Origin: a bacterium
GTDB lineage: Bacteria > Bacillota_I > Bacilli_A > RFN20 > CAG-826
Length of the DNA stretch: 64,000 nucleotides
Direction of reading: 5' to 3'
NCBI GenBank assembly: GCA_963622135.1
Contig: CAVFGR010000015.1
Coordinates: 1,064 to 65,063, forward strand
The position numbers and the translations under genes were made by a program. Of this stretch, positions 5,506 through 56,181 are shown one piece after another; the first letter of the stretch is position 1, and every line of letters starts with the position of its first letter. The notes beneath the pieces were generated by a model, which was not told the origin of the DNA, ran no database searches, and saw only the letters and a program-made list of their open reading frames with translations.

Positions 5506-5506
5506 A

Positions 5507-6780: not shown

Positions 6781-8095
6781 AAATTTAACGGATCGCTTCC
6801 AAAGCGTCTTTAAAAAACTCAGAAGAGAAACCACCATCACCGAAGAGAATGTTGATGCGGCTTTAAAGGAAATCCGCGTGGCTTTATTAGAAAGCGACGT
6901 CAATTTCAAAGTGGTCAAAGCCTTCCTTAATTCCGTAAAGGAAAAGGCCTTGAACACCGAAGTCATCAAGAACGTCAACCCAGGCGACCAAATGGTCAAA
7001 ATCTGCCACGATGAATTAGTTGAACTCCTTGGCAAAGACAATGCCCCGTTGGACTTTAAAAAGAAACCGACAATCATCATGATGGTTGGTCTTCAGGGTT
7101 CGGGTAAAACCACGACCGCTGGTAAATTGGCTTACCTAGCCAAAAAGAAGTATGGCAAAAAAGTCTTGCTCGCCGGTTTGGACGTTTATCGTCCAGCCGC
7201 TATTGAACAATTAGGGACTTTAGCCAAATCCATCGACACCGATTTCTTTGAAATGGGAACTTCTGTTTCTCCGGTCGATGTTGCCAAAAAAGCCAAAGAC
7301 CGCTGCATTAACGAAGGGTACGACATCCTTATTTTGGATACCGCTGGTCGTTTGCAGATCGACGAAGGCCTAATGCAGGAATTGGTCGATATCGAAAACG
7401 CCGTGAACCCAGACGAAGTCTTATTGTTAGTCGATTCTATGGCGGGTCAAGAAGCCGTCAATGTGGCCAACTCCTTCCATCAGCAAGTTAAACTCACTGG
7501 TTTGATCATGTCCAAATTGGATGGCGACGCCAAAGGCGGCGCTGCTTTGTCCATCAAATATATGACCGGGCTGCCTATCAAATTCGCTGGCGTCGGCGAG
7601 AAGATCGATGAATTAGATATCTTCTATCCAGACCGTATGGCGGACCGTATCTTGGGCATGGGCGACGTTATCTCCTTAGTCGAGAAAGCCAAAGAGAGTA
7701 TCGATGAGAAAGAAGCCGAAAAAGAAGCCAAGAAGATGATGTCCGGCAACTTTACCTTGAACGATATGCTTAAACAAATGAAGATGGCAAATCGTTTAGG
7801 CTCTCTATCCAAAATCGCCGCGATGATTCCGGGTATGCCGCGCATCACCGAAGAACAGCAAGCCCAAGCCAAGAAGGAAATGAAGACCTTCGAGGCCATC
7901 ATCAATTCGATGACACCATATGAACGAAATCACCCAGAATGCTTGAAGAACTCCAGAAAGGTCCGTATCGCGAATGGTTCTGGAAAGACCAACGCCGACG
8001 TCAACCGTGTTTTAAAGAAATACGAACAAACCAAGGAAATGATGAAACAATTCAAGCAATATCAGAATTCACCAAAAGGCGGAATGTTCAGATAA
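6770..8095 (+). CDS. ffh: signal recognition particle protein Ffh
   Basis: GLQGSGKTTT, DTAGR, SKLDGD motifs and an M-domain. Confidence 0.92.
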   Translation: MAFENLTDRFQSVFKKLRRETTITEENVDAALKEIRVALLESDVNFKVVKAFLNSVKEKALNTEVIKNVNPGDQMVKICHDELVELLGKDNAPLDFKKKPTIIMMVGLQGSGKTTTAGKLAYLAKKKYGKKVLLAGLDVYRPAAIEQLGTLAKSIDTDFFEMGTSVSPVDVAKKAKDRCINEGYDILILDTAGRLQIDEGLMQELVDIENAVNPDEVLLLVDSMAGQEAVNVANSFHQQVKLTGLIMSKLDGDAKGGAALSIKYMTGLPIKFAGVGEKIDELDIFYPDRMADRILGMGDVISLVEKAKESIDEKEAEKEAKKMMSGNFTLNDMLKQMKMANRLGSLSKIAAMIPGMPRITEEQQAQAKKEMKTFEAIINSMTPYERNHPECLKNSRKVRIANGSGKTNADVNRVLKKYEQTKEMMKQFKQYQNSPKGGMFR

Positions 8096-10041: not shown

Positions 10042-10103
10042 GCAAATTCGCTTTACAGATAAAAAATAATCAATGCTATGCATTAAGGGCTATAATTAAA
10101 ACC

Positions 10104-10844
10104 ATGAAACACACTTTTAAACATTATCCGAAACAATTTTATCTGGGCATCTGTCATCGCGGACTTCACGATGAGACATGTTCGGAAAACGGCATGAAGG
10201 CCTTTGAAAACGCCATCAACAACAATATGGCCTTCGAATTGGACATCCATTTATCGAAAGATGGCGTCTTGTTCGTTTCTCATGATGCCGAGCTCGAAAG
10301 GATGACCGGTAAAAAGGGAATCATTGAAGAATTGGATTCAAAGACCATCAAATCGGAGTACCGTCTTCATGACGGTGGGGAGATACCAACCCTCCAAGAA
10401 GTATTGGATTTAAACAAAGAAAAGGTCCTTATTGTCGTCGAAGTAAAAGTTTATAACGACAATTACAAGGCGGTCGCTAAAGCCACAAAAGAGATTCTTA
10501 AACAAATTAAAGATAAGAGCAAAATCGCTATCATTTCTTTCGATCCAAGAGCCTTAATTCGTGTAGGAAGTCGCTTCGAACGTCAATTATTGCTTTTAAA
10601 GGAAAAAGAATGGGTCCGACATTTCGTGCCATTCTTCGAATCCATCGATATCGAATATACGATGGCCAAAGAAGACTGGGTGAAGCGTTATAGAAAGCGT
10701 GGCGGAATCGTCAATTGCTGGACAATCGAAACAAAAGAGCAAGTCGAAGAATATTCTCAATATGTAGACGCGATGACGTTCCAACATGTCGACAAGGATA
10801 TCGTCATCAAAGATCGTGAGAGCTATCTAAAAAAGAGATTGTGA
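10104..10844 (+). CDS. glycerophosphodiester phosphodiesterase (start at MKHTF; longest ORF begins 10035 but would overlap the rpsP promoter)
   Basis: GDPD motifs HRG..HDE..ELDIH..HD. Confidence 0.7.
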   Translation: MKHTFKHYPKQFYLGICHRGLHDETCSENGMKAFENAINNNMAFELDIHLSKDGVLFVSHDAELERMTGKKGIIEELDSKTIKSEYRLHDGGEIPTLQEVLDLNKEKVLIVVEVKVYNDNYKAVAKATKEILKQIKDKSKIAIISFDPRALIRVGSRFERQLLLLKEKEWVRHFVPFFESIDIEYTMAKEDWVKRYRKRGGIVNCWTIETKEQVEEYSQYVDAMTFQHVDKDIVIKDRESYLKKRL

Positions 10845-10977
10845 AGTCTTATCTTCTTGCCAACGCGCTTCCGCGAGCGTAATATACTCACTGCGTCCAT
10901 TAGGACGATGCGTGGGGTCCGCCAGCATAGACTGTGAACCTACTAAGAAAACGATTCGTTAAAGGAGGTAACATATC

Positions 10978-11331
10978 ATGAATACCAATATCGTGAATGA
11001 GATTACCGCCCGTCAGATTCGCACCGACATTCCTTCCTTCAAAGGCGGCGACACCGTTAAGGTCTACGTCCGTATCGTTGAAGGCAAAAAGGAACGTATC
11101 CAGGCCTTCGAAGGCGTTGTCATCAAACGCCGCGGCGAAGGCGTCAGCGAGACCTTCACCGTCCGTAAGATGTCCGCTGGCATCGGTGTCGAAAGAACTT
11201 TCCCAGTCAACTCCCCAGCCATCGCCAAAATCGATGTCTTGAAGTCTGGTAAAGTCCGCCGCGCCCGCATCTACTATATGCGTGGCTTATCTGGCAAGGC
11301 TGCTCGTATCAAAGAAGTCGAGAGCAAGTAA
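10978..11331 (+). CDS. rplS: 50S ribosomal protein L19
   Basis: 117 aa L19. AAAGGAGGT RBS. Confidence 0.92.
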
Positions 11332-41560: not shown

Positions 41561-41700
41561 TTTGTGCCGATGGAATCACACACTTAATGAAATCAATAAG
41601 CCGGCTTTCAAATGTAAAAAACGATATGGTTGCTCTTTGTTATATTTATTGTGATACAATAATTCATTCCGTATGCCTTTTTAGGCAACAAGGAGAATTT

Positions 41701-44121
41701 ATGAGAAAAATTAGTAAATTAACAATTCTGACATTAGGGGCGATCGCTTCTGCGTGTTTGGCCTCTTGCGGGCCTGATGCCAGCGATTCCTCTGATCATA
41801 GCAGCGTTCAGCAAACGCTTACCAGCATCAAAATCGTCTCCGGCTCCATCAAGACCAGCTTCAGCCAAGGCGCAACCCCGAATTATAACAATCTCGCCAT
41901 CAACCTTCTCGACCAAGACGAGAAGAAGATGGATACCTTAAAATGGGTTGATAACAAGGACAAGATCACTTTCACGGAAATCGATACTTCCGAGTTGGCG
42001 ACGGATAAGGTCTTCACCGTTACCTATAACGATGGTCAAAACGAATTCACCGACACTTTGAAATACAATGTCGTTGAGGCCTACACTCTTTCTTCCTGGG
42101 CCGCCAATCCGAATTATTCCTATACGACCGGATATCAGGCCAACAACAAGATCTCTACCGACGAAGATAACTTGGAGAAGGGATTCATGAAGACCGCCAC
42201 CTTCTATGTTGGCAACATGAACTCCGTCAATTTGCTTCCAGAATTAAATGGTTTGAACAAAGAGACCTATGAGGTTACTGAACTTACCACCATTCCAACC
42301 GGCGCGACTGTTAAATTGGTTTCCGAAGGCAAGGATATGGTCGTTGACTCTTATATTGAAAACGCCGATTCCTTCATCAAAGATGGCCAATTGAAATTCA
42401 AAGATGGTGTCACCGGCTCTTTCGCTATCACCCTCAGCTATTCAGGCTTGCAGGATATCGTTTATAACGTCGAAGTCGTCGATGCTTATAACGTCAGCAA
42501 AGCGACCGATTTGTACGCTTTCTACACTAACAACACCAACGATTCTTCTATCTTCACTCCAGTCCATGAATTCAAGAAAGAATTAGGATTGCCTGATGCC
42601 GATAACATTGTTATCCAAAACGACATCACCATCGGCAAGAACGACATCCCTTCCGCCTTCATCTGGCAAGAAAATTGCGACGAAGTCGTCAAAGGAAGCT
42701 TGAAAGACTGGATCCGTCTTTATGAGCATCAATTCGATGACGCCAATGAAACCGCCACTGTCTATGGCAACCTCCATAAGATTTCCTTCAACACCGATGA
42801 AGACGACGAGAATATGTTCCCGTATGTCATAACCGACTCACAGGAAGGTATCGCCCAAAGCGAATCCAAGCCAATCTCTTGTCACGCTTCTTTGTTCTAT
42901 GGCACTTATGGCGCCAATCAAGATCCGTTCAATTGCCAGATTATCTTCAAAGATCTTCAGGCTTCCGGCAATAATGGCGTCGATGATACCGCCACGACAG
43001 CCAAAAAAGTTGGTCCGATGTTCTTGAAGTCCGAAGTTAACTCCAAATTTGACAACGTTTTGGTTAACAGTTTCTATATGGCTGCCATGGCTGACGGTCC
43101 TTATTCTTGGTATGAGAACGGCGTTAAGAAGTATGGCAAGCAAATCGATGGTGTCTTCATTGATCCAAAAATCGAAATTGATTCCTGTCGTTTCAATGAC
43201 TCCGCCAACGCTGCCCTCTATTTCTTCGGTCAGTCCAAAGGCGATATCAAGAACTCCGATATCACCAAAGCCGGTGGACCATTGATCTTCACCAACCCAC
43301 AAATTGAGCCGTTGCCAGATGATGTCATCTCCGCGTTAAGCTACGCCCCGACATTCTCCACTGAAGTCAATATCGATGAAAACAGCTTCCTTTCCAACTA
43401 TACCGCTGGCAAAGGCGGATGGTTCGATGCTTATAGTGCCAGCGCTATTGCCGGAACCTTACAATCCATGGATGGACTTTTCACCCCTTATGGCATGTCC
43501 TTCTTAAGAACGAAGAACGATGTTAAGAAATTCAATCTTATCTTAGTTAATCTTCCTATTTCTGGAGAAGAAGCCCTTGCGTTGCCATCTTTGGATGAAG
43601 GCTGCACCAATGTCACCATTAAGAAAGGCAACAACGTTGTTTACAGCACCCTTGATGGTTATCAAGAAGTTATGACTGCTTATGCCGCTCTCGCGGCCGC
43701 CACTCAATCTGCTGCTTCGGCTGAGGAATTAGCCACCCTCTATCAAGCTTATGCCGATGCTATCTCCAGCAGTTTCTATGGCAATAACTTAGCCTACGCT
43801 AACATTCAGAACGAAATGGTCTTTGCGGCCACTAACGGCGAAGGCAAACATGAATTTGGCATCGTCAATGTTGATCAAAGCAGTGGACAATACTATCTCT
43901 GCTCCAGCGACTACGCCATCAAAGCCGGAATGGCTGCCGCTAGCATCCCTGTCACCGTTCCAAGCAGCTATCAGCCAGGCGAAACTATGAAGAGCGCTGG
44001 ATTCTTATCCGCCACCATCAACGGAAACATCGTTTATGGCTCTTCCCAGCTTACTACCCCGACCGCCTATAACGGCGCCAACAACTACGGCGTCATCTTA
44101 GGCGACTATCACGCTATCTAA
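41701..44121 (+). CDS. large surface lipoprotein (807 aa), function unknown
   Basis: Signal peptide with lipobox LASC (MRKISKLTILTLGAIASACLASCG). AAGGAGAA RBS. Asn/Asp/Gly-rich repeats. The longest ORF (41587) was trimmed. Confidence 0.7.
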   Translation: MRKISKLTILTLGAIASACLASCGPDASDSSDHSSVQQTLTSIKIVSGSIKTSFSQGATPNYNNLAINLLDQDEKKMDTLKWVDNKDKITFTEIDTSELATDKVFTVTYNDGQNEFTDTLKYNVVEAYTLSSWAANPNYSYTTGYQANNKISTDEDNLEKGFMKTATFYVGNMNSVNLLPELNGLNKETYEVTELTTIPTGATVKLVSEGKDMVVDSYIENADSFIKDGQLKFKDGVTGSFAITLSYSGLQDIVYNVEVVDAYNVSKATDLYAFYTNNTNDSSIFTPVHEFKKELGLPDADNIVIQNDITIGKNDIPSAFIWQENCDEVVKGSLKDWIRLYEHQFDDANETATVYGNLHKISFNTDEDDENMFPYVITDSQEGIAQSESKPISCHASLFYGTYGANQDPFNCQIIFKDLQASGNNGVDDTATTAKKVGPMFLKSEVNSKFDNVLVNSFYMAAMADGPYSWYENGVKKYGKQIDGVFIDPKIEIDSCRFNDSANAALYFFGQSKGDIKNSDITKAGGPLIFTNPQIEPLPDDVISALSYAPTFSTEVNIDENSFLSNYTAGKGGWFDAYSASAIAGTLQSMDGLFTPYGMSFLRTKNDVKKFNLILVNLPISGEEALALPSLDEGCTNVTIKKGNNVVYSTLDGYQEVMTAYAALAAATQSAASAEELATLYQAYADAISSSFYGNNLAYANIQNEMVFAATNGEGKHEFGIVNVDQSSGQYYLCSSDYAIKAGMAAASIPVTVPSSYQPGETMKSAGFLSATINGNIVYGSSQLTTPTAYNGANNYGVILGDYHAI

Positions 44122-44127
44122 TAATTT

Positions 44128-46590
44128 ATGACAAATAAGGCCCTGAAAAAGAACATTTGCCTCTTTGCGGGCCTTTTTGTCGTTTTAGGGCTATCGTTCG
44201 GCTTATCTTTCATCAATAAGAGCAACTACGCTCTTAATTTCTTGCCGTTTGTCTTGCTCTTATTGGTCTTAATCGGCGGCTTCATCTTATTGAAACGCTA
44301 CCTTAAAGACCATAAAGCGAAGTCTTTTAAATCCAAATGGCTCACCAAGATGAGTGCTAGATTAGCCACCAAAGAAGGCCGTTATAAGTACCTGCTTTGT
44401 CTCCTTTCCATCATTCTTGGAATCTTGTTTTTCGCCCGTTTCTATTTCTTCAAAGGCACTTACGATTATGTAGATGCTTACGGTGGGGCGGGCTCTTTCA
44501 CTTACTACGACATTTTCCATCTCGAAAGTCAGCTATTGATGCTTCGTTTGGATCCATTGATGCTAGCTAAATACGAGTCGGTTATCGGCACGTTGGCTAA
44601 TGATTTATGGACGGCGTTGGTCGTATTGAGCTTGGTCAGCGCTTTCTATTTGGAAGAATCTTCCTTAAGCGTCCGTCGTTATATCGGCGTTCCTGGCGCC
44701 ATCTTGATCACCCTAGCCTTCCCAATCGTCCTTAAGGGCATCGTTGGGTCCGATGCGGTTTCTTATCGTTCCATCCTTATGGGCTTGGAATTGGCTATCA
44801 TTGATTTCTATTTCTTCCATAGCCTTTTTGAAGAAGGAAAGTTCAAGCTCAATAAGAAAGAGATAAGGAAAATCATCGCCATTTTGATTCCGATGTTATT
44901 GACGATGGCGACCGCTTATTCCCCATCCTTATTATTCGGAAGGACGGTTAATTTGGGCGGTTACACCTTAACCAATCCAAAAGGACCGAAGAATTTATCC
45001 CATCGTATCTATCTATATTTGGCTTTCATCTTGCCAATTTTGTACTTTGCCTTGCTATATCCTATGAGCAAAGAAGAAAGAAGAGGCGCTTTGCTGCAGA
45101 TATCATTAGGTACTTTGATTGGCTATGCCTCTATTCATCGTTATGACATCTGGACGGATTTGTCCTCTTGGCCATTACATCTTTGCAACACCGCCATGTA
45201 CACGATGCCGATAACTTTGTTATTTGCTAGTTACGGTCTTTATTACTTCACCTTCTTCGTTAACGTGTTAGGTGCTTTCTTAGCGTTATTGATGCCTAAT
45301 TTCTCGGAAACCCTATATGTTTTCGATCCGAAAATCGTGGCTTTCTTCATCAACCATTTGAACGCCTTCTTCATGCCGGTGCTAATCGTCATGTGCGGAG
45401 TATATAAGCGACCGAAGATGCGTTACTTCTTATATTCCCAGATAGGGTTCTTTGTGTATTTCGCTTTCGTTATGGCGGTCAACACTATCCTTACCGCCCA
45501 TGGCGTCTCTAGCGACTTCTTCTTCATCAATTCCTCATTCGTCGCCGATAAGTTGGGCGAATGGGCCAAAAACCTATTTAAGACAACGATTTCTTGGGAA
45601 AGCAAAGGATATACCTATGTCTTGCATTTGGCTTACGACATATCCTATTACCTTGTCTATGTCGTCTTAGCCTTCGGCATGTGGTTCTTATACGAATTGT
45701 TATTCCGAGTGACCGACGAATTGGCTGCCATTCGCTTAGCCAAAGAAAAATCAATCAGCCGTCATAAGGCTTACTTAGCCATTCACCAAGGAGGAAAAAT
45801 CATGAGCGAGAAAATTGAATTAACCATCTCTCATCTTTCCAAACGCTATCACGGGAACGATTTCTTTACCGTCAAAGATTTCTCTCTGGACTTAGAGGGC
45901 GGAAAGATCTACGGATTCCTTGGCAAGAATGGCGCAGGCAAATCTACCATCATCAAATCCATCGTTGGTATCCATGGCTTTGAGGGTGGCGAGATTGACG
46001 TCTGCGGGCATAATGTCATCGAAGAGCCATTGGAAGCTAAAAAAGAAATCGGCTTCGTTCCTGATAACTATGCCTTATATGAGAACTTGACCGGCAGACA
46101 GTACATCAGCTATATTGCTGACCTTTATCATGTTTCCAAAGAGCAAAAAGAAGAAACTGAAGAGAATCTCGTTGCCCGTTTGGAATTGGTGGACCGTTAC
46201 GACAAGCCGATGAAATCTTATAGCCACGGCATGAAGCAAAAAATCACCATCATCGCCGCTCTTATTCATAAGCCGAAAATCTGGATTTTGGATGAGCCTA
46301 TGACTGGTTTAGATCCAAATTCCATCTATCAGATCAAAGAATGCATGAGAGAACACGCTAAAGAAGGCAACATCGTCTTCTTCTCCTCCCATATCATCGA
46401 TGTCGTTAAGAACCTTTGCGACGAAGTTGTCATCATTAAGAAAGGTGACCTCATCAGGCGCATTGATTTAGACGCTGAGCCAGAAGAAAGGGAGAACCTC
46501 GAAGAGACCTTCCTTCGTTTAACCAGCGACAGTGAGGAAGAATCAAACATTTTGATTGAAGAAGAAAAGAAGGAGAAAGGAATCGCGTGA
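44128..46590 (+). CDS. polytopic membrane protein (about 14 TM, YwaF/TMEM164-like C-terminal part with PLHLCN) fused in frame to an ABC-transporter ATP-binding domain
   Basis: Continuous 820-aa ORF. The ATPase domain starts at residue 559 (Walker A GKNGAGKST, signature YSHGMKQK, Walker B ILDEP). Internal AAGGAGG plus ATG at 45788-45804. Confidence 0.7.
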   Translation: MTNKALKKNICLFAGLFVVLGLSFGLSFINKSNYALNFLPFVLLLLVLIGGFILLKRYLKDHKAKSFKSKWLTKMSARLATKEGRYKYLLCLLSIILGILFFARFYFFKGTYDYVDAYGGAGSFTYYDIFHLESQLLMLRLDPLMLAKYESVIGTLANDLWTALVVLSLVSAFYLEESSLSVRRYIGVPGAILITLAFPIVLKGIVGSDAVSYRSILMGLELAIIDFYFFHSLFEEGKFKLNKKEIRKIIAILIPMLLTMATAYSPSLLFGRTVNLGGYTLTNPKGPKNLSHRIYLYLAFILPILYFALLYPMSKEERRGALLQISLGTLIGYASIHRYDIWTDLSSWPLHLCNTAMYTMPITLLFASYGLYYFTFFVNVLGAFLALLMPNFSETLYVFDPKIVAFFINHLNAFFMPVLIVMCGVYKRPKMRYFLYSQIGFFVYFAFVMAVNTILTAHGVSSDFFFINSSFVADKLGEWAKNLFKTTISWESKGYTYVLHLAYDISYYLVYVVLAFGMWFLYELLFRVTDELAAIRLAKEKSISRHKAYLAIHQGGKIMSEKIELTISHLSKRYHGNDFFTVKDFSLDLEGGKIYGFLGKNGAGKSTIIKSIVGIHGFEGGEIDVCGHNVIEEPLEAKKEIGFVPDNYALYENLTGRQYISYIADLYHVSKEQKEETEENLVARLELVDRYDKPMKSYSHGMKQKITIIAALIHKPKIWILDEPMTGLDPNSIYQIKECMREHAKEGNIVFFSSHIIDVVKNLCDEVVIIKKGDLIRRIDLDAEPEERENLEETFLRLTSDSEEESNILIEEEKKEKGIA

Positions 46591-48326
46591 AAAAGGTAGC
46601 GAACGAAAAAACATCTGCTTTCCGACGCTTTTTCGCGGTTGATTGGCGTGCCTTTTGGGTGTTGGTGAAAATGCTTTTCTCCAACTCCATGTCCATCAAC
46701 TGGAAGAAAGATAAAAAGAAAGCCATCATCAAGATCGTTTTGAGCTTGGTCGCTTTCGCAGCGGTTGCTGCCTTATCTTACGTTTTCTTCTATTTCTGTA
46801 TTCGCTTTAGCATTTTCTCCTTGCTAGCCTTCGTTCCGATGAGCGTTCCATCTATCGTGGTGACCGTCTTATTGATCATCTCGTTTATTGCTTCCTTATC
46901 AAAAGTTACGGAAGAACTTTATTTCGGAGAAGATAACAAGGTTTTGCTCACTTTGCCAACGAACGGGAATACCTTGTTCTTGTCCCGATTGGCGGTACGC
47001 TACATCACCTCATATCGCCGTTCCTTGTTATTAGAAATCCCATTCTTGATTGGTTATTTTGCTGTTAGCAGATATCCGGTTTATATGTATTTCGTCTTGT
47101 TTGTTATCTGGGCGTTGATCGACTTAGTGATGTTATTGCTGGCTTCCCTCATAAGCGTCCCTGTTTATTACATCAAAAAGGCAATCCGCACCCACACTTG
47201 GGCTAGCATCATCGCTAAATCCATCATCTTTGCCATCATCTTGGCTTTATGTATCACCGTCATTGTCCTTGTACCTGATAATATCGATATTTTCTCGAAC
47301 TGGGGCACATACTTTGCCAAGATTCAGAACGGTCTAAATTACTACAAAAACAACCTTGGGTTCTTCTATCAAATTTCCATGGTCTATTTGGGCAATTTCA
47401 CTGGATTCAGTTTCTATTTCATGTCTCGTTCGGCTATTGCTGGTCTATGGACTTTATTGGCCATAATTGGCCTTATCGTCGTTCTATTCGTGGCATCGTT
47501 AGCTTTGGCTAGCCCGCTATATTTGAAGTTAGCCAGCGGCACTGGAGAACTTCAGGCCAAGGGCAGGAAGAATGCCAAAGAAAAAGAAAACAAGTCTTTG
47601 CCTCCGTTCATTTCTCAAATCAAGAAAGATGCCATTCTGTTCTTCAAGAATTCAGATATTTCTTCTTCCTATCTCGGAACCTTTACAGCTTTGCCTTTGT
47701 TGATCGCTTTGTTGGCCAAAATCTTCAACGCGATGGACTTAAATAGCCGTGGGGACGCTTTGGTGCAGGTCGTGAGCTTACTAATTGCTCTGCTTATCGG
47801 CTTAAGCACCAATTCGGTAATTGCCCGCATCTATTCCGAGGAAGCTGGAGCCTTCAAATTGGCGAGAACCTATCCACTTAAAGAGCATTACGCCGTCGGA
47901 AGTAAGCTCTTTATTCCTGGCGTATTTGGCTGTTTGAGTCTTGTGGCGTGCACTATCTCTTTATGTTACATCCGTCCGGAGATGCTCGAAGGAACTACCT
48001 TCATGGGCGTTGCTATGATCTTCGTTTATGTCGGACATTTGCTATACAGCGCCGGACTCGACTTCACCAATCCAAGTTCTACGTTCGGCGGTGGTTCTTT
48101 CTTAGCTAGAAACGAAAATCGCTCGGTTATCATGGCTTTTATCACTTCGGCCTTCTTTGCGGCTTTGTACTACTATTATTTCCAAGACCACATATTGTGG
48201 CTCTCGTCCTTGCAAGCGACCGCCGGATTCAAGGTATTCATCTTAGGTGTCATCTATCTAGCTTTTAACATCATTCTCTATATTCGCAAAATCAAATACA
48301 TTTACAAAACGGGGGAGGTCTTATGA
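46587..48326 (+). CDS. ABC-2-type exporter permease-like polytopic membrane protein
   Basis: 579 aa with about 12 TM. GTG start overlapping the upstream stop (GTGA). AAGGAGAAAGG RBS. Confidence 0.65.
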   Translation: MKKVANEKTSAFRRFFAVDWRAFWVLVKMLFSNSMSINWKKDKKKAIIKIVLSLVAFAAVAALSYVFFYFCIRFSIFSLLAFVPMSVPSIVVTVLLIISFIASLSKVTEELYFGEDNKVLLTLPTNGNTLFLSRLAVRYITSYRRSLLLEIPFLIGYFAVSRYPVYMYFVLFVIWALIDLVMLLLASLISVPVYYIKKAIRTHTWASIIAKSIIFAIILALCITVIVLVPDNIDIFSNWGTYFAKIQNGLNYYKNNLGFFYQISMVYLGNFTGFSFYFMSRSAIAGLWTLLAIIGLIVVLFVASLALASPLYLKLASGTGELQAKGRKNAKEKENKSLPPFISQIKKDAILFFKNSDISSSYLGTFTALPLLIALLAKIFNAMDLNSRGDALVQVVSLLIALLIGLSTNSVIARIYSEEAGAFKLARTYPLKEHYAVGSKLFIPGVFGCLSLVACTISLCYIRPEMLEGTTFMGVAMIFVYVGHLLYSAGLDFTNPSSTFGGGSFLARNENRSVIMAFITSAFFAALYYYYFQDHILWLSSLQATAGFKVFILGVIYLAFNIILYIRKIKYIYKTGEVL

Positions 48327-48838
48327 AAAAAGGTGTTGCCGTCTTAGTTAGCGCGATATGCCTTTTGGCCGTGGTTTTCGTTACGGTCTTCGGCACTCGC
48401 CCACAAGGTATCGTCCCTGTCATTTACATTACCAATCTCACCATCAAGCCAAGTGACAACAGCCGCTACTGGACCACTGATAGCGGTGTGCATCAATGCG
48501 TTATCGAATATGATCCAAATAAGGAAGTCACCGATGGCGAAGATTGCTATATGCCTTATATTTTTGTCACTGACATTCTTCCTGAAAACGCAACGAACAG
48601 AAGCTTTGTTTATACCCTCGCTAAGGAATATGAAAACTACATCACCTTCTCTTCTGGCGACCAAGCTGCTAGACAAGGCGCTTTCCTTATCAAAAAGATC
48701 ACTGACCGTGCAGATCCAATGGTCGTTTCCATCTCCGTTTCCCCGCAAGATGGCGGCAGTGGCAAAGGCGACACTTTAAAGATCGTCATTGTCTACGACA
48801 AGGTCTATGGAAGTTCTTCGACTCCAAGTGGCGATTAG
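48323..48838 (+). CDS. small signal-anchored exported protein
   Basis: N-terminal TM/signal MKKGVAVLVSAICLLAVVFV. GGGGGAGG RBS. ATGA overlap with the upstream gene. Confidence 0.55.
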   Translation: MKKGVAVLVSAICLLAVVFVTVFGTRPQGIVPVIYITNLTIKPSDNSRYWTTDSGVHQCVIEYDPNKEVTDGEDCYMPYIFVTDILPENATNRSFVYTLAKEYENYITFSSGDQAARQGAFLIKKITDRADPMVVSISVSPQDGGSGKGDTLKIVIVYDKVYGSSSTPSGD

Positions 48839-48914: not shown

Positions 48915-51734
48915 ATGCAATATTTCTACCTAACATTAGTAGCTCTTTCTCCGGTTGTTCTCAGCATCGTTTTCTTTTTGCTTGATAAATACACGAAATT
49001 CAAGAATCTCAAATACATAGTCAAACAAATTATCTACGGCATCGCTTTCGGCGGACTAGCCATAGTTGGCACTGAATGTGGCATTCCTATCTCGGGGGCT
49101 CAAATCAATTGCCGTGACGCTGCCGTATTAACTGCTGGGCTTATGTTTGGTGGGCCAGCCGGCATGATTGCTGGTGTTATCGGTGGCGTTGAACGTTTTG
49201 TTAGCGTTTATTGGGGCGTTTCCTCTTTCACCCAAATCGCTTGCAGCGTCTCTACTATTTTGGCTGGCGCTTACGCTTGGTTAATTCGCAAATTCATGCT
49301 TGAAAACAATCGCCCGGGAATCTTCTTTGGCTTTTGCGCTGCGGTGGTTATGGAAATCTTCCATTTGGCCATGATTTTCTTCACCAACTTCAGCGCTCAA
49401 GCGGAAGCTATGGCGGTGGTTAGGGCCGCAACCCTCCCAATGGTTTTAAGCAATGGATTGTCTGTGGCGGTTTCAACCTTAGTCATGACCTTGCTTAACA
49501 AGGAGAAACTTTTTGCTAAACTTAGAGACACGAAAACATCGAAAATCGTTCAGCAATGGCTTCTTTTGACGGTTGTTATTGGTTTCTTAGCTTCCGGTGT
49601 TTTCGTTTATAGCTTCCAAACCTCATTAGCCAAGAGCGAGGCTAAAGAATCATTGAATTTGGCTATTTCGGATACCGAGGCGGACATCAAAGATAAGTCT
49701 GATGCGAACATCTTATCTATTTGTCATGATGTGGCCTCTGATTTAACAGCGGGTGATGACATCGATCTTATCGCTGATAGACGTGACGTAACTGATATTC
49801 ATGTCGTTAATAGCAAAGGCATCATTATCAAGAGCACTGATCTATCCTTAATTGGTTGGGATATGCATAATTCCGACCAATCGGAAGAATTCCTATGCCT
49901 TTTGGATGGAAAGACCACGTCTTATGTTCAGGCTTATGGACCGATTGGCTCAAATGAAGAAATCTATCGTAAGTTTGCAGGCGTTACCTATGATGATGGC
50001 TTCGTTCAAGTTGGATATGATGGCGAGCGTCTTCAAAGAGATATTGCCGAGCAAGTCAACAACGTAACCAAGAACCGCCATATCGGCAAAGGAGGATGCG
50101 TCCTCGTCCTCGACCAAAATAAGCAAATAGTTTCTGGCCCAGATTCATTTATGAAGGGCGGGCCGCTGGAAAGTGGCAACAGTTCCTTCCCAATTTCCGA
50201 TACTTTCAAAGTTACCGTAAAGGGAACGGAATACTATTGTGTCTATGCCATGTCGGAAGGCTATTACATCGTTTCCTTGTTGCCAATCGAAGAAGCTTTG
50301 GCTGATCGCAACGTTTCGTTATACCTAAGCACCTTCATGGAAGTAATTGTTTTCGCAATTATATTTGCTTTGGTTTACGGCTTAATCGAAAAGACGGTCG
50401 TCAAGCAACTTAAGCATGTCAATAAGACCTTGTACGCCATTTCCAATGGAGACCTTTCATTGGCGGTAGATGTTAGAGGTTCATTGGAAATGTCCTATCT
50501 TTCCAACGACATCAATAGAACCGTTGATTCGATGAAGAAGTTGATTTCCGAAGCCAACCAAAGAATCGACGATGAGTTGGAATTCGCTAAGCAGATTCAA
50601 TCGTCTTCCTTACCGGTTATCACTGAAAAAGTGAGTAAGCGGCAAGAATTCGATATATACGCCTCTATGAAAACCGCCAAAGAAGTCGGTGGGGATTTCT
50701 ATGATTTCTACGGAAATGAAAAGAACTTCAACATTATGATTGCCGATGTCTCGGGCAAAGGCATTCCAGCCGCGATGTTTATGATGCGTGCCAAAGCCGA
50801 CCTTAGGACCTTGACGGAAGCTGACAAGCCTTTAGATGAGGTTTTTACCTCTGCTAACTCCTCTTTGTGCGATCGTAATGATGCCGGAATGTTCGTCACG
50901 GCGTGGCAAGGGAACATCGATTTAGAAACCGGTCTTCTTACCTTCGTCAATGGTGGACATAACCCTCCATTAATCAAAAAAGCCTCAACTGGAAAATTTG
51001 AATACCTTAAGTCTAAAGCCGGCTTTATCTTAGGCGGGATGGAGGGATTCAAATATCGTTCCAATACCCTTCAATTGGAACCTGGGGATGTTCTTTTCCT
51101 TTATACCGACGGTATCACCGAAGCCGTTGATAACGATCTTAAATTGTATGGCGAACAACGTCTGCTTGATTTGCTCAATAAGACCGAGGCTAAGAATATG
51201 AAAGAACTCTGCCTAGAAGTCTCGAAAGATATCGAAGTTTTCTCCAACGGTGCCCAGCAGGCTGACGATATCACTATGCTGGCCTTCGAATATAAAGGGA
51301 TTGTGCCAATTCCAAGCATTCATTTCGATGAAGCTAAGTTAACGGATATTGAGCAAATGACCGAATTCCTTAATGCCGAACTAAACAAATGCCAATGCCT
51401 TAAGAAAGAACGTTATCAGCTCGATGTCGCCCTTGATGAAGTGGTCTCTAACATCATCAATCATGGATATGACGGGAAGCCGGGGCCACTTACGATGTCT
51501 GTCGAATATCGTGAAGACAGGAATGCCATCTATCTCAAATTTATCGATAAGGGCATTCCGTACAACCCGCTTCATAATTCCGATCCAAACCTCGATGTTT
51601 CCTTGGAAGAGAGGAAAGTCGGCGGAGTTGGCATCTATATCGTCAAGAACACGATGGACGATATGAAGTACAAATATGAAGATGGGCAAAATATTTTGAC
51701 TTTGACAAAGCTTCTTAATAAGGAAGGGGAATAA
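48915..51734 (+). CDS. membrane sensor protein: 7-TM + periplasmic sensor + HAMP + PP2C (SpoIIE/RsbU-type) phosphatase + GHKL anti-sigma-type Ser kinase (RsbW-like) domain
   Basis: PP2C motifs GGDFYDF, DVSGKG, TDGITEA, ADDIT. HATPase_c_2 motifs VVSNIINHGY...GGVGIYIV. Confidence 0.85.
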   Translation: MQYFYLTLVALSPVVLSIVFFLLDKYTKFKNLKYIVKQIIYGIAFGGLAIVGTECGIPISGAQINCRDAAVLTAGLMFGGPAGMIAGVIGGVERFVSVYWGVSSFTQIACSVSTILAGAYAWLIRKFMLENNRPGIFFGFCAAVVMEIFHLAMIFFTNFSAQAEAMAVVRAATLPMVLSNGLSVAVSTLVMTLLNKEKLFAKLRDTKTSKIVQQWLLLTVVIGFLASGVFVYSFQTSLAKSEAKESLNLAISDTEADIKDKSDANILSICHDVASDLTAGDDIDLIADRRDVTDIHVVNSKGIIIKSTDLSLIGWDMHNSDQSEEFLCLLDGKTTSYVQAYGPIGSNEEIYRKFAGVTYDDGFVQVGYDGERLQRDIAEQVNNVTKNRHIGKGGCVLVLDQNKQIVSGPDSFMKGGPLESGNSSFPISDTFKVTVKGTEYYCVYAMSEGYYIVSLLPIEEALADRNVSLYLSTFMEVIVFAIIFALVYGLIEKTVVKQLKHVNKTLYAISNGDLSLAVDVRGSLEMSYLSNDINRTVDSMKKLISEANQRIDDELEFAKQIQSSSLPVITEKVSKRQEFDIYASMKTAKEVGGDFYDFYGNEKNFNIMIADVSGKGIPAAMFMMRAKADLRTLTEADKPLDEVFTSANSSLCDRNDAGMFVTAWQGNIDLETGLLTFVNGGHNPPLIKKASTGKFEYLKSKAGFILGGMEGFKYRSNTLQLEPGDVLFLYTDGITEAVDNDLKLYGEQRLLDLLNKTEAKNMKELCLEVSKDIEVFSNGAQQADDITMLAFEYKGIVPIPSIHFDEAKLTDIEQMTEFLNAELNKCQCLKKERYQLDVALDEVVSNIINHGYDGKPGPLTMSVEYREDRNAIYLKFIDKGIPYNPLHNSDPNLDVSLEERKVGGVGIYIVKNTMDDMKYKYEDGQNILTLTKLLNKEGE

Positions 51735-51736: not shown

Positions 51737-52918
51737 ATGGACAACATTAGTTACAAATTGGAAAATGGGACTTTAACGGTTTTCGTTTCAGGGAGAATCG
51801 ATTCTTCGAACGCTCAAGAGTTTGATAGCGAATTAGAATTAATCCGCACGAATAATGCACACAATGCATTGGTGCTAGACGCCGAGAATCTTGAATATAC
51901 CTCCAGCGCCGGTTTACGCGCTATCCTACGCGTTTTGAAACTCGAACCGGGTATGAAAATCATCAATGCCTCCAGCGAAGTTTATGACATTTTCGAGATG
52001 ACTGGTTTCACCGAATTGATGACTATTCAAAAGGCTTACCGTCACATTTCGGTGGAAGGAGCTGAACTTATCGGACAAGGTGCGACGGGCAAAGTCTATA
52101 GAACCGCACCTGACACCATCGTTAAAGTCTATTTCGATTCAAATTCCCTTTCTGATATCGAAAGAGAAATCAAAATGGCTAGAAGGGCCTTCGTTTTAGG
52201 CATTCCGACCGCGATTCCGTTTGATATCGTCAAGGTTGGCGATAATTTTGGTTCGGTTTTCGAGATGCTTAACGCCGATTCCTTCGCGAAGTGCGTCATC
52301 AATGATCCCAATAATATTGATAAATATATCGATTTAAGCGTCGATCTTATGAAGAAAATCCATCACGCCGAAGTGAAGCCTGAAGAGATGGCGGACCAAA
52401 AGGCCGTTTTCCGTAAGAGAGTCGACTTTGCTAAAAATTACCTAAGCAAAGAAAGATACGAGAAATTGTCGAAGATGTATGAAGCCATCCCGGAAAGCAA
52501 TCACATGCTTCACGGCGATCTCCATTTCAAAAACATGATGATGCAAAATGGCGAAGTCCTCTTGATCGATATGGACACCCTTTGCCATGGAGACCCAATC
52601 TTTGAATTTGCCAGCATCTATGATGCCTACCTTGGCTTTTCGGAATTTGATCACGAGAACATTCATGATTTCTTAGGCATTACCTATGAGCAGGGCCAAC
52701 ACGTCTGGCAAAAGACGGTTGAGGACTATTTCGAGACTAAAGATGAAAACCGCATCAAAGAAATAACCGAGAAAGTACAAGTTTTAAGCCATCTTCGCCT
52801 CTTCCATCACATCATTACCCATGGGTTGGATACCGATGAAGAACATAAAAAGCAAAGAGACGGCTATCTCCATCTTCTCGAAAAAGCCATCGATGACGTT
52901 GATAACCTAATTCTCTAG
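51737..52918 (+). CDS. STAS (anti-sigma antagonist) domain fused to an APH/protein-kinase-like phosphotransferase domain
   Basis: STAS loop LEYTSSAGLRAIL. Kinase motifs IGQGATGKVYR, VKVY, HGDLHFKNMMM, LIDMD. Confidence 0.8.
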   Translation: MDNISYKLENGTLTVFVSGRIDSSNAQEFDSELELIRTNNAHNALVLDAENLEYTSSAGLRAILRVLKLEPGMKIINASSEVYDIFEMTGFTELMTIQKAYRHISVEGAELIGQGATGKVYRTAPDTIVKVYFDSNSLSDIEREIKMARRAFVLGIPTAIPFDIVKVGDNFGSVFEMLNADSFAKCVINDPNNIDKYIDLSVDLMKKIHHAEVKPEEMADQKAVFRKRVDFAKNYLSKERYEKLSKMYEAIPESNHMLHGDLHFKNMMMQNGEVLLIDMDTLCHGDPIFEFASIYDAYLGFSEFDHENIHDFLGITYEQGQHVWQKTVEDYFETKDENRIKEITEKVQVLSHLRLFHHIITHGLDTDEEHKKQRDGYLHLLEKAIDDVDNLIL

Positions 52919-52927: not shown

Positions 52928-53227
52928 ATGGAAATAACTAAAAATTTAGATAGTGGGAAAGTCATTCTTTCCCTCAAAGGAAGGCTCGATACGGTCACTT
53001 CGCCAGAACTTGATAGAGTCATGAAAGAGACCTTTGAAGAAACCAATGATCTCGTTCTCGATTTAAAGGGACTGGACTATGTTTCATCTTCGGGCTTGCG
53101 TTTGTTTTTGATTGGTTATAAAACCATGTCCGGGAAAGGCGGACGCTTCTCCCTTATAAATGTCAATGAAGTCGTTATGGATGTCCTTGAAATGACGGGC
53201 TTCAACGATCTTCTATCCAACAATTAA
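52928..53227 (+). CDS. stand-alone STAS-domain anti-sigma-factor antagonist (SpoIIAA/RsbV-like)
   Basis: Phosphorylatable loop DYVSSSGLRLFL. TAGGAG RBS. The ORF track starts at an upstream TTG at 52922. Confidence 0.8.
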   Translation: MEITKNLDSGKVILSLKGRLDTVTSPELDRVMKETFEETNDLVLDLKGLDYVSSSGLRLFLIGYKTMSGKGGRFSLINVNEVVMDVLEMTGFNDLLSNN

Positions 53228-53243: not shown

Positions 53244-53885
53244 ATGTTGAAATTATTGGCCAGCTCTTCCGATTCAGGAAAAAATGTCGATGTCGGTTTA
53301 ATCGTCGCGATTGTCTTAGGCATCGCTCTTATTGTCACGTTGGTTGTCTTTATTATCTACACCATCAATCTTAAAAAAGGTGTCTCTTTCTTATACACCA
53401 TCGTCGGCAGCGAAGCCGATACGACCATCGATTCGGCCATCGAAAAGAACGAAACGGCCAAAAAAGACATGAAGAAAGGCGTCGTCACCGACTATAACAA
53501 GCAAAGAAAAGAAATCGCTAAGGAATACGATAAAAAGATCAAAGAGATTAACGCTGGCTACGCCAAACAAGTTAAAGAGACCAGAAAGCAGGCCAACGCC
53601 GCCATCAAGGTAGCGAAGGAAGACGAAGATGCCGAAGGACTTACCCAAATCCGCGAGAAATTAGACATCGACGTCCGCAATATCAACGCTTCCAAACGCG
53701 CTGAAGTTGATCCGGTGGTTACCGAAAAGAACGCTAAGTTAAAGGAAATCGAAGACCAATATAAGCCATCGCTTATCACCTATCAGAGGGTTTTGGCGGT
53801 TTCTAGACACACAAAACCTGTCGCAAAAATTTTAAAGAAATGCAAAGAAAAAGAATACGCTTTGCCAGACTACGATAAGCAATAA
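53244..53885 (+). CDS. membrane-anchored coiled-coil protein
   Basis: One TM (LIVAIVLGIALIVTLVVFIIY) followed by a K/E-rich helical region. GGAGGT RBS. Confidence 0.55.
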   Translation: MLKLLASSSDSGKNVDVGLIVAIVLGIALIVTLVVFIIYTINLKKGVSFLYTIVGSEADTTIDSAIEKNETAKKDMKKGVVTDYNKQRKEIAKEYDKKIKEINAGYAKQVKETRKQANAAIKVAKEDEDAEGLTQIREKLDIDVRNINASKRAEVDPVVTEKNAKLKEIEDQYKPSLITYQRVLAVSRHTKPVAKILKKCKEKEYALPDYDKQ

Positions 53886-53935: not shown

Positions 53936-54111
53936 TATGGGTGGGAAACTTTTTTATTCGTTGACACTTTTTAAGGCCATCAAAAAAATGTATCCGCTTT
54001 CATTTATGAGGGTTAAAATTATTTTACAATCGAAATAAGCTATTCGGCTTTCTAGGGAGGATTTTTGCCACATAGTTTATTTCCAAAAACTTGCAAATAG
54101 AAAGGAAACAC

Positions 54112-56181
54112 ATGAAAAAATATTGGCAAGAGCACAAAAAGAGCCTGCTCTGGTTGATTATTGGAATCGTCATGATCTTTGTCACCAGCTTTGCTCAATT
54201 TTTGGTGCAAACAGACGGCTGTAGTGTCAAGGTCTCTGATTTAAGAGATGAGACCAATACCGGCACTATCAGCTTGAATTACACGGACGACACCGGCGCC
54301 TCCGCGACCGGCGACTTCGAAATCAAAGGCGAAGTCAAGTCTGGCATCTTATTCGTCCCTAAGGATGCCTCCGCTGAAAACAAGAAGCCTGGCATCGTCC
54401 TCACTCACGGCTATTTGAATAACCGTGAACTCCAGCTTCCTAACGCTATCGAATTGGCAAGAAGAGGCTTTGTCGTCTTGACCGTTGACCGCGAAGGTCA
54501 TGGTAACTACAACAACGACGATGATGCGGGCGCGTTGATGGCCACCAAGGGCTTATATGAATCCGCTAAGTATTTATATAACCTTGATTACGTTGATCAG
54601 AGCATGATCGGTATCTCCGGTCACTCCATGGGTGGTTTCACCACTGCCATGGCCTTGATCACCGATATGAGTCAGCAGACCTTAACCCTCAATCGCAAGA
54701 GCGTTAAAGCTGATGGTTATCACATCATCAAAGCTGGTCTTATGCAAGGTTGGAGCTCCTTCATGGGCGCCGCCCCTGATGTCAGCGTTGGCTTATTGAA
54801 AGCCACTGATGACGAATTCTTCTTCACTTCTAAGGATTTGGAAGGAAATAAGACCATTTCCAGAGAATTCCTTCATAGCACCGGTGCCGCTTCCTTCGTT
54901 AAGATGGACACCACTGGTTTAACCGAAATCAACGTTCAGAACTGCGCTCGTTACGTCAATGGCGTCGTCGTTGACAAGAAGCCTGGCGAAGCCGTTGGCG
55001 AACCGTTCCGTGCTATCTACGAAGCCGATGAAATCCACCCACTCAACCACTGGTCAGTGACCAGCACCAGAAACGTCTTAGACTTCTTCTACGGCGCTTT
55101 CGGTACCCCAAACGGACACAAATACATCGCCGAAGGTCGTCAGACCTGGGTCGTTAAGGAATTATTCTCCTTCGCCGGCATGCTTTCCTTGTTGTCCTTA
55201 ATCGTCCCATGCGTCAGCTTGATGCTCACTATCCCGTTCTTCAAGTCATTGAAGAAAAAACGCATCGCTGCAGTCGCTGCCGATGGCACTATCGCTACCA
55301 GAGAAGTCGAAGTTACGAAAGAAGCCATCGAAGAAGAAAAGAAACCTCTCAAGAAGTGGTATTCTCACTTGTTCTATTGGATCCCAGCCGTTGTTTGCGC
55401 GGTCTTCGCGGGCTTCTCTATCCAGAAGTTCTGCACCGAATGGGCCGATAAGATCTTCCCGAATTCTCAGTTGTTCCCGCAGGATACAACCAACTGGGTC
55501 GCTGTCTGGACTGCCGCTTGCGGTATCTTCGTCTGCATCGTGACCTTGCTCGTCTACATCGTTAAGTACTGCATCAACAAGGGCAGAGTCGCCCATGGCA
55601 AAGAGCCAATTGATGCTGATAACCCATTCGCTACCGCCAAGGTTTCTTCCTTCGGTAACGCCTTAAAGACCATCTTATTGGCCTGCATCGTCGTCTTCTT
55701 ACTCTACTTAGTCGTCTTCATCAACTGGAAAGCCTGGGTTGTTGACTTCCGTCTCTGGACGCTCGTCATCAAGGTCTTCAACGTCTCTAGCATGATGCCA
55801 ACCATCCTCCGCTACTTGCCGTGGTTCGCCGTTTACTACATCCTTTCCGGCATTGCCAACCAGACCTTCAGAGCCAAGAACATCCCAGATTGGGCCACCA
55901 TCGCCATCAACTCGTTCTTCAACGTCGTTGGCTTGGTCTTGGTTATCGCCATCCAGTATGGCACCTTCAAGTCCACTGGCGTCTTATGGCAGGGGAATAT
56001 GGCCTTAGGCTACATCGTCCTCTTCCCGACGATCGGCGTCCTTATCATCGCCGCCATCCTTTCCCGTGTTCTCTACAAGAAGACCGGAAACATTTGGCTT
56101 GGTTCCTTAATCAACGCTCTCTTATTCACCATCATCACAGTTTCCAACACTGCTGCTAGCTGGGGATATGTCTTCGCGTAA
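54112..56181 (+). CDS. alpha/beta-hydrolase (dienelactone hydrolase/S9-like) domain fused to a C-terminal polytopic membrane domain
   Basis: GISGHSMGG nucleophile elbow, N-terminal TM, about 8 C-terminal TM. AAAGGAAA RBS. The ORF track starts at 54091. Confidence 0.7.
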   Translation: MKKYWQEHKKSLLWLIIGIVMIFVTSFAQFLVQTDGCSVKVSDLRDETNTGTISLNYTDDTGASATGDFEIKGEVKSGILFVPKDASAENKKPGIVLTHGYLNNRELQLPNAIELARRGFVVLTVDREGHGNYNNDDDAGALMATKGLYESAKYLYNLDYVDQSMIGISGHSMGGFTTAMALITDMSQQTLTLNRKSVKADGYHIIKAGLMQGWSSFMGAAPDVSVGLLKATDDEFFFTSKDLEGNKTISREFLHSTGAASFVKMDTTGLTEINVQNCARYVNGVVVDKKPGEAVGEPFRAIYEADEIHPLNHWSVTSTRNVLDFFYGAFGTPNGHKYIAEGRQTWVVKELFSFAGMLSLLSLIVPCVSLMLTIPFFKSLKKKRIAAVAADGTIATREVEVTKEAIEEEKKPLKKWYSHLFYWIPAVVCAVFAGFSIQKFCTEWADKIFPNSQLFPQDTTNWVAVWTAACGIFVCIVTLLVYIVKYCINKGRVAHGKEPIDADNPFATAKVSSFGNALKTILLACIVVFLLYLVVFINWKAWVVDFRLWTLVIKVFNVSSMMPTILRYLPWFAVYYILSGIANQTFRAKNIPDWATIAINSFFNVVGLVLVIAIQYGTFKSTGVLWQGNMALGYIVLFPTIGVLIIAAILSRVLYKKTGNIWLGSLINALLFTIITVSNTAASWGYVFA

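Follow-up and report, generated by a model that had tools for sequence, protein, structure and literature searches.

What does a STAS domain do when it is joined, on one polypeptide, to a domain with the fold of a kinase, and on what would such a kinase act? This question is raised by a gene at positions 51737–52918 (forward strand) of a 64,000-nucleotide stretch of contig CAVFGR010000015.1 (assembly GCA_963622135.1), referred to here as the window. The reading we favour, with a probability of about one half, is that the encoded protein, STAS-APH, is the output component of a partner switch of the RsbU/RsbV/RsbW type, which operates without a sigma factor and in which the STAS domain gates a kinase acting on a small molecule. 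An earlier note on the sequence had suggested a phosphorylation-gated kinase or a STAS-gated phosphotransferase. This idea is strengthened by the genomic context, namely by a PP2C phosphatase and a GHKL kinase encoded upstream on a single polypeptide, a second STAS protein encoded downstream, and GHKL-STAS-APH fusions in relatives.

The STAS-APH fusion protein

The fusion gene displays the following features:
51737–52918, forward strand: STAS-APH-like kinase fusion gene, 393 amino acids plus stop (open reading frame call, Pfam, AlphaFold2, Foldseek)
51752–52033, forward strand: STAS domain, amino acids 6–99 (Pfam, E = 5.8e-10, above the gathering score)
51905–51907, forward strand: codon of Ser57, the predicted phospho-acceptor, second S of YTSSAGL (conservation across representatives)
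52049–52915, forward strand: APH/choline-kinase-like domain with a protein-kinase-like fold, amino acids 105–393 (Gly-rich loop G113–G118, K130, E144, C-terminal helical lobe)
52511–52534, forward strand: catalytic loop H259-G-D261-L-H-F-K-N266 (HxDxxxxN)
52568–52576, forward strand: metal-binding D278-M-D280, with the DFG-equivalent Asp

The open reading frame has exactly the bounds given in the earlier note, and the ribosome-binding site GGAAGGGG lies 5' of its ATG. The fusion is confirmed as real and stands far above chance. Residues 1–100, described in the note as a SpoIIAA-like STAS domain, were recognized as such by Pfam, while residues 105–393, assigned there to the APH/CotS/choline-kinase-like fold, matched the APH family PF01636 (amino acids 110–300, E = 1.9e-14, 54.4 bits versus a cutoff of 23.2). 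The AlphaFold2 model, built on 70 homologs, was confident over its whole length (mean pLDDT 93.6; pTM 0.79; pLDDT 84–90 in the inter-domain linker). A bilobal kinase fold and a STAS alpha/beta fold are both present. Foldseek searches with this model returned families in agreement with Pfam (E about 1e-9). A non-kinase fold of the C-terminal region, named in the note as the outcome that would contradict its assignment, did not appear in Pfam or fold searches, both of which identified a kinase.

The top structural neighbours of the kinase domain were all small-molecule kinases, with identities of 10–16%. The best matches were APH(2''), APH(3'), APH(4), the amicoumacin kinase AmiN, macrolide 2'-phosphotransferases, and corramycin kinase. 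Sequence searches of the PDB, made with the single protein and with the family profile, gave weak kinase matches only (hygromycin-B kinase, E = 1e-4 to 2e-3) and identified no specific kinase subfamily. HMMER paired the phospho-loop of the fusion protein with the 'SSAGL' loop of 4hyl. We take Ser57 to align with Ser58 of SpoIIAA and with the D-S-A-G-L serine of TM1442, the SpoIIAA match being from our own alignment. It thereby takes the place of the phosphorylatable Ser/Thr that STAS proteins of this type carry where helix 2 begins (D-S-x-G-L-type loop).

A search with the kinase part alone against 1.84 billion cluster representatives yielded 2409 matches at E ≤ 1e-3, 1220 at E ≤ 1e-10, and 431 at E ≤ 1e-30, all counted as 50%-identity clusters. 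The STAS-APH architecture is neither rare nor confined to the window: it defines a family of hundreds of such clusters, carried by gut and rumen Bacillota. Conservation was counted in the best 150 representatives of these clusters, 124 of which possess a STAS domain. The serine of TSSAGL, Ser57, is conserved among these orthologs (121 of 124); its loss in orthologs, the other outcome that the note had named as contradicting it, did not appear. The catalytic set is complete and ~94–100% conserved: G113 (138/145) and G115 (145/145) of the Gly-rich loop; K130 of IVKVY (147/147); E144 (141/149); H259 (149/149), D261 (148/149) and N266 (149/149) of HGDLHFKN; and D278 of LIDMD (150/150). The hallmarks listed in the earlier note, namely the Gly-rich loop, the IVKVY lysine, HGDLHFKN, and LIDMD, are accordingly all present and under selection. 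By sequence criteria, the kinase domain is not a pseudokinase. Positions with at least 90% identity cluster almost wholly in the phospho-loop (Y54, S56, S57, G59, L60, and R61), the catalytic elements, and a G155-x-P-T-A-I160 motif, which is specific to the STAS-APH family.

The nearest named relative is TIGR02172, a family of uncharacterized APH-like paralogs, of which the fusion protein is not a member (110.8 bits versus a cutoff of 228.2; E = 8.5e-32; amino acids 109–326). Every specific family tried, i.e. TIGR02172, APH(6), Mph, CotS, CcrZ, thiamine kinase, and TIGR00377, gave a score below its curated cutoff. These included the NCBIfam equivalogs of antimicrobial-resistance kinases (APH(6)-I, 25.6 bits versus 325; Mph(C), 18.9 bits versus 550) and the CotS/CotI spore-coat kinases (TIGR02906, cutoff 172.7 bits). 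The fused STAS domain scored 48.3 bits against TIGR00377, under the cutoff of 53.45. TCAD9 matches reported by Pfam in some relatives were rejected as kinase-fold cross-matches below cutoff. With TIGR02172 and the characterized kinases of PF01636 (APH, choline kinase, MTR kinase, and FN3K), the protein shares the bilobal fold, the Gly loop, the Lys-Glu pair, HxDxxxxN, and the DFG-like Asp. It differs from the characterized PF01636 kinases in its low identity to them (10–17%), in scoring below every equivalog model, in its own G-x-P-T-A-I motif, and in the fusion to STAS.

Some members of the family deviate from this layout. Representative P0237 (809 amino acids) possesses a Na+/H+ exchanger membrane domain fused to STAS-APH, in which HGS replaces HGD; the layout recalls the transporter-STAS proteins of the SulP/SLC26 type, but the appended kinase domain is probably inactive. 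P0152 and P0247 have in common an N-terminal domain of ~200 amino acids ahead of the APH-like domain, with a STAS domain between the two in P0247 and not in P0152. Pfam matched the N-terminal domain of neither protein, even with the threshold relaxed to E ≤ 1, and the impression of a degenerate Fic motif in them was dropped as unsupported.

The partner-switch operon and its relatives

The fusion gene occupies the middle of a complete partner-switching cassette (PP2C, GHKL, and STAS) without a sigma factor. The other parts of this operon are:
48915–51734, forward strand: 939-amino-acid membrane sensor with PP2C phosphatase and RsbW-like GHKL serine kinase (Pfam)
49011–49484, forward strand: 5TMR-LYT membrane sensor module, amino acids 33–190 of the sensor (Pfam PF07694, 5TM-5TMR_LYT, E = 1e-22)
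50718–51293, forward strand: PP2C/SpoIIE phosphatase domain, amino acids 602–793 (Pfam PF07228, E = 4.6e-51)
51333–51710, forward strand: RsbW/SpoIIAB-type GHKL serine-kinase domain, amino acids 807–932 (Pfam PF13581, HATPase_c_2, E = 2.5e-20)
52928–53227, forward strand: stand-alone STAS protein, 99 amino acids from the ATG at 52928, alternative TTG at 52922 (Pfam STAS, 1.3e-16)
53244–53885, forward strand: 213-amino-acid protein, function unassigned; transmembrane helix at the N-terminus, Lys/Glu-rich coiled-coil (open reading frame)

The sensor is built, in this order, of the 5TMR-LYT module, a probable extracytoplasmic segment, a linker, PP2C of the SpoIIE type, and GHKL (HATPase_c_2). The metal-binding PP2C motifs GGDFYD, DVSGKG, TDGITEA, and DDITML and the GHKL N-box EVVSNIINH are readable in its translation. 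Pfam gave a weak dCache_1 match below cutoff (amino acids 379–454, E = 0.004), and NCBIfam gave weak matches to SiaA, RsbW, and SpoIIAB (RsbW, 8.2e-10, below cutoff). The stop codon of the sensor gene precedes the ATG of the fusion gene by 2 nucleotides (nt). The stand-alone STAS gene begins 9 nt (from the TTG, 3 nt) past the stop of the fusion gene, with an AGGAG ribosome-binding site 6 nt ahead of its ATG. Its product displays the phospho-loop DYVSSSGL and passes the TIGR00377 model of anti-sigma-factor antagonists (79.6 bits versus 53.45). The last tightly packed gene, separated by a 16-nt gap with a GGAGG ribosome-binding site, encodes the 213-amino-acid protein, which had no Pfam match above threshold; this gene was found only in close relatives (syntenic in loci L001–L004, L006, and L049). 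No sigma-factor gene is present in the operon or among the recurrent neighbour clusters of the 56 loci surveyed below.

The window represents an ordinary Bacillota chromosome (G+C content 43–46%, PolC gene); contig CAVCXC010000002.1 of assembly GCA_963606165.1 differs from it very little. A scan for promoters and terminators around the operon performed no better than on shuffled sequence. PADLOC gave zero matches for the four operon proteins and the HD_4 partner described below, and an anti-phage defence reading was rejected on this ground.

To survey the neighbourhoods of STAS-APH genes, one genome per species was taken, resulting in 57 loci, all of them from gut or rumen metagenome-assembled genomes (MAGs). 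Of these, 56 were usable and 42 had good flanks. They belong mostly to Oscillospiraceae, Acutalibacteraceae, Lachnospiraceae, Ruminococcus, Erysipelotrichaceae, and Bacilli. Neighbours within 6 kb were identified with iterated local hidden Markov models over all open reading frames; tblastn with the neighbours from the window under-detected PP2C and GHKL in distant loci. The partners were distributed as follows:
PP2C and/or GHKL: 28/56 of all loci, 25/42 of well-flanked loci
Extra STAS: 25/56 of all loci, 22/42 of well-flanked loci
RelH-type HD_4 gene: 18/56 of all loci, 14/42 of well-flanked loci
PHP gene: 6/56 of all loci, 6/42 of well-flanked loci
None of these partners: 19/56 of all loci, 13/42 of well-flanked loci

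Partner linkage is frequent, not obligatory. The only recurrent neighbour clusters were PP2C/GHKL, STAS, HD_4, PHP, and lineage-specific genes. Kinase and phosphatase occur in every combination, i.e. in a ~940-amino-acid membrane sensor, as a soluble PP2C-GHKL protein, or as separate genes. The 5TMR-LYT-PP2C-GHKL sensor is also encoded upstream of STAS-APH in L001–L006, L016, L017, L049, L052, L065, and L066. GHKL is fused onto STAS-APH proteins in L035, L039, L040, L042, L043, P0124, P0149, and P0222; the order is STAS-APH-HATPase_c_2 in L040, P0149, and P0222, and GHKL-STAS-APH in P0124. The loop (E/D/K/Q/A)Y(I/V/T)SS(A/S)GL was present in 29 of 29 short STAS-only open reading frames (L001–L060; one of them, from L056, is a truncated STAS-APH). 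Since fused and free STAS domains have the same EY(I/V)SS(A/S)GL loop, both are probably served by one kinase and one phosphatase. Within STAS-APH, it is the STAS part that shows the higher conservation in most loci (40 of 50).

Several loci of the survey show features of their own. Assembly JAZQPL01 contains two paralogous loci: the first (L016) includes the membrane sensor and a free STAS and lacks HD_4, and the second (L031) includes HD_4. As paralogous loci occur within one MAG, a second STAS-APH copy elsewhere in the genome of the window is possible. L047 harbours two STAS-APH copies (5905–7032 and 10098–11252) located 3 kb apart. Near the STAS-APH gene of L051, a fusion of a MatE/MurJ-like transporter domain with HATPase_c_2 of the RsbW type is encoded (615–2387, forward strand; 590 amino acids); it is unusual for a partner-switch kinase to be anchored in the membrane by such a domain. 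The proteins of L004 and L056 (CAYPED01, labelled 'uncultured Staphylococcaceae') are 84–95% identical to those of the window's operon, which is of the Oscillospiraceae/Eubacteriales type, and this label looks wrong.

Directly upstream of the operon, four tightly packed genes (41587–48838, forward strand) encode, in this order, an 844-amino-acid product without a Pfam match, an 820-amino-acid protein in which a TMEM164-family membrane domain is joined to an ABC ATPase, a 579-amino-acid polytopic membrane protein without a Pfam match, and a 171-amino-acid protein with an N-terminal segment resembling a signal peptide or transmembrane helix. Among the close relatives, L001–L003 extend far enough upstream to show that synteny with the operon includes at least the last three of these genes; for the final two, it was also seen in L049 and L056. 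A functional connection with the operon is therefore possible. Downstream of the operon, and conserved there in the closest relatives only, is a gene for a 696-amino-acid protein (54091–56181, forward strand) with an alpha/beta-hydrolase N-terminal half (weak Peptidase_S9/PETase-like matches) and a long C-terminal half with multiple transmembrane segments.

Phosphohydrolase partners and candidate substrate

In 18 of the 56 loci, a gene for an HD_4 protein of ~190 amino acids is located directly before STAS-APH. The protein is annotated as "bifunctional (p)ppGpp synthetase/hydrolase", though it contains the hydrolase domain only. Its closest solved relatives are RelH_Lm (4YF1, 9e-28), RelH_Ll (7QOE), and RelH_Cg (7QOC), with E values ranging from 1e-22 to 1e-28, followed by the hydrolase domains of Rel and by Mesh1. 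The HD..ED motif was present in 120 of 120 HD_4 homologs. For a reciprocal test, the six on the longest contigs were taken from 3769 HD_4 homologs (54–68% identity). In all six, the next gene on the same strand encoded a STAS-APH protein of 386–393 amino acids and a GHKL gene was located just upstream. Two of these six, L065 and L066, possess a 5TMR-LYT-PP2C-GHKL sensor like that of the window, with the order sensor-STAS-HD_4-STAS-APH.

A PHP protein is encoded 3' of STAS-APH in 6 of the 56 loci. Its best matches were the 3',5'-nucleoside-bisphosphate phosphatases 3e0f and 2yb1 and RNase AM; the NCBIfam match (1e-37) was below the equivalog cutoff. Fusions extend this picture: P0183 is an HD_4-(degenerate STAS)-APH protein, P0168 a STAS-APH-PHP protein, P0202 an HD-CE-STAS-APH protein, and P0252 a fusion of STAS-APH with a PolyA_pol head. 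A third type of hydrolase was detected in L063, where a STAS-Cof-type HAD phosphatase fusion (3394–4518, forward strand; Hydrolase_3, E = 2e-55) accompanies a free STAS, a GHKL kinase, HD_4, and STAS-APH, without PP2C. The pairing of three unrelated phosphohydrolase folds with one kinase is the pattern expected if a writer and an eraser act on one phospho-metabolite.

The substrates of the two best-matched hydrolase types are nucleotides, from which phosphoryl groups at the ribose 3'(2') position are removed. In the sister loci, the product of the kinase is probably removed by a dedicated phosphoesterase, HD_4 of the RelH type or PHP, which makes a metabolite that contains ribose or resembles a nucleotide the most likely substrate. 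A more far-reaching proposal, which we put forward tentatively and with the odds against it, is that STAS-APH and RelH-type HD_4 form a signal-gated writer/eraser pair on an unrecognized phosphorylated ribose or nucleotide metabolite, for example a nucleotide with a 3'- or 2'-phosphate that serves Firmicutes of the gut and rumen as a second messenger. Elsewhere, HD_4 would be replaced by an adjacent or fused PHP enzyme resembling pAp phosphatases or, in L063, by STAS-HAD, and the level of the metabolite would be set by a partner-switch relay and not by a two-component system or an RSH enzyme. The window would then hold the version lacking HD_4.

Two further arrangements concern the STAS domain itself. 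In L021, an HD_4 protein with a C-terminal STAS domain (5407–6303, forward strand) is encoded directly before STAS-APH, so that the putative eraser and the putative writer each have a STAS of their own. With the STAS-HAD protein of L063, the module includes another type of enzyme fused to STAS.

Mechanism, alternatives, and significance

In the mechanism we propose, a signal perceived by the 5TMR-LYT sensor would shift the balance between PP2C and GHKL, PP2C being the signal-activated step. Gene linkage and the fusions suggest that these two domains set the phosphorylation of Ser57 and of the equivalent serine of the free STAS, which would compete for the same GHKL and PP2C sites. The state of the fused STAS would control the APH-like kinase via the short conserved linker into the lobe with the Gly-rich loop, via binding and release of GHKL, or both. 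With unphosphorylated STAS, the kinase would be ON; with phosphorylated or GHKL-bound STAS, it would be OFF. This polarity is proposed because phosphorylation of All4160, described below, is inhibitory and because it agrees with general partner-switch logic. In its active state, the kinase domain would phosphorylate a hydroxyl of a small metabolite, probably a ribose- or nucleotide-like one, as the structural neighbours and hydrolase partners suggest. The domain identities, the intact catalytic and phospho-acceptor residues, the packing of the operon, and the conserved linkage and fusions were observed directly; the kinase and phosphatase of Ser57, the sign of gating, and the small-molecule nature and identity of the substrate are what we infer.

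Several points weigh against this scheme. The window contains no HD_4 open reading frame, and its only PHP match is the PolC polymerase; the nucleotide-like substrate is therefore borrowed from orthologs with 45–58% identity. No partner gene was found within 6 kb in 19 of the 56 loci. The ON/OFF polarity would hold by analogy only, a rigid coupling between STAS and kinase may be read from just the pTM of 0.79 and the linker pLDDT of 84–90, and the literature searched contained no paper on the STAS-APH architecture.

NCBI names relatives of STAS-APH 'anti-sigma factor antagonist', and a true antagonist would titrate an RsbW-like kinase and free a sigma factor encoded elsewhere. The APH domain would then be a nucleotide or metabolite sensor, similar to the N-terminal domains of RsbR and YtvA; such sensor-STAS fusions are well known, and in 40 of 50 loci the STAS half is the better conserved of the two. 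However, neither a sigma factor nor a free anti-sigma gene recurs in the neighbourhoods of the 56 loci, and the ~99–100% conservation of the catalytic base D261 and the metal ligands N266 and D278 is unexpected for a mere ligand sensor. The kinase domain also occurs fused to other enzymes and without STAS, the STAS region being absent in 26 of the 150 representatives, some of them fragments (e.g. P0125, P0142, P0163, and P0184), as well as in L057. This role is therefore unlikely. Still a little harder to defend is the possibility that the APH-like domain is a protein Ser/Thr kinase of STAS, acting on Ser57 in cis or in trans or on the free STAS, in a self-contained switch that supplements or replaces GHKL. 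GHKL is encoded next door here and in about half of the loci, and is even fused, which would make a second STAS kinase redundant. The top structural neighbours are small-molecule kinases without exception, and the HD_4, PHP, and HAD partners match hydrolases of nucleotides and sugar phosphates, not protein phosphatases, while PP2C already serves STAS.

The resistance-type kinases among the best structural matches and the LytS-type 5TMR membrane domain of the upstream sensor would also agree with a kinase for aminoglycoside, macrolide, or peptide antibiotics whose activity the STAS switch would couple to envelope stress. This is very improbable. The identity to any resistance enzyme is only 10–17%, the NCBIfam resistance models score far below cutoff, and the PDB is heavy in resistance kinases, which biases the list of matches. 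Moreover, the family is chromosomal, widespread, and sometimes paralogous (L016/L031; L047), and it is tied to RelH-type and PHP hydrolases, not to resistance or mobility genes.

Gating of a small-molecule kinase by STAS finds its closest functional precedent for a STAS-fused enzyme under a partner switch in All4160/HenR. All4160 of Anabaena PCC 7120 is a STAS-glycosyltransferase switched by the PP2C phosphatase HenR and the kinases Alr3423 and All2284, with phosphorylation being inhibitory (PMC13555669); it is also mentioned in PMC8256260. Both systems consist of an N-terminal STAS fused to an enzyme, serine kinases, and PP2C, with no sigma factor, and the switch acts on the enzyme directly. 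All4160 differs in being cyanobacterial and a glycosyltransferase instead of a kinase-fold protein, in having a separate kinase and phosphatase with no fused membrane sensor next door, and in that no hydrolase partner is known.

The switches of B. subtilis (SpoIIE/SpoIIAA/SpoIIAB and RsbU/RsbV/RsbW) differ from the system described here, which has no sigma factor, carries phosphatase and kinase on one membrane-anchored polypeptide, and has a kinase-fold domain of 290 amino acids on one of its two STAS proteins. An RsbW-like kinase and PP2C on one polypeptide, with a STAS partner, occur in Vibrio fischeri SypE-SypA, P. aeruginosa HsbR-HsbA, and M. tuberculosis Rv1364c, and regulators of this type have non-sigma outputs (biofilm, c-di-GMP). 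The window's sensor resembles them in this single-polypeptide design, but their inputs are REC or PAS domains and not 5TMR-LYT, and their STAS partners, which consist of one domain, work by binding to other proteins. In SiaABCD of P. aeruginosa, a PP2C/kinase pair reportedly toggles SiaC, which in the unphosphorylated state activates the diguanylate cyclase SiaD. There too, a phospho-toggled partner switches on an enzyme producing a small signalling molecule, but this enzyme belongs to the GGDEF cyclases instead of the APH-like kinases, and SiaC is not fused to it. In the sister loci only, the pairing of phosphoryl-adding and phosphoryl-removing proteins, fused in P0183, would resemble the logic of Rel/SpoT; the synthetic partner in Rel/SpoT is an RSH synthetase with a nucleotidyltransferase fold versus the APH-fold kinase here.

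Partner switching is usually taught as sigma-factor control, and to our knowledge only a few cases, such as SiaC-SiaD and All4160, have it controlling an enzyme directly. Partner switching with a kinase-fold output domain, in which an intact kinase of the small-molecule type is attached to STAS, appears to be a new form of such control. The family is large, uncharacterized, and present in dominant gut and rumen Bacillota, where it has been hidden by the automatic antagonist label. Our analysis corrects the annotation of the STAS-APH family and of its HD_4 partner, which is a hydrolase only. The tight reciprocal linkage to HD_4 is a concrete, testable lead towards a kinase and a hydrolase that share one metabolite and are controlled by a membrane sensor. 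If the substrate is a nucleotide, this would represent a new signalling-nucleotide pathway; if it is not, STAS-APH would still offer a clean model for the regulation of an attached catalytic domain by a STAS phospho-switch.

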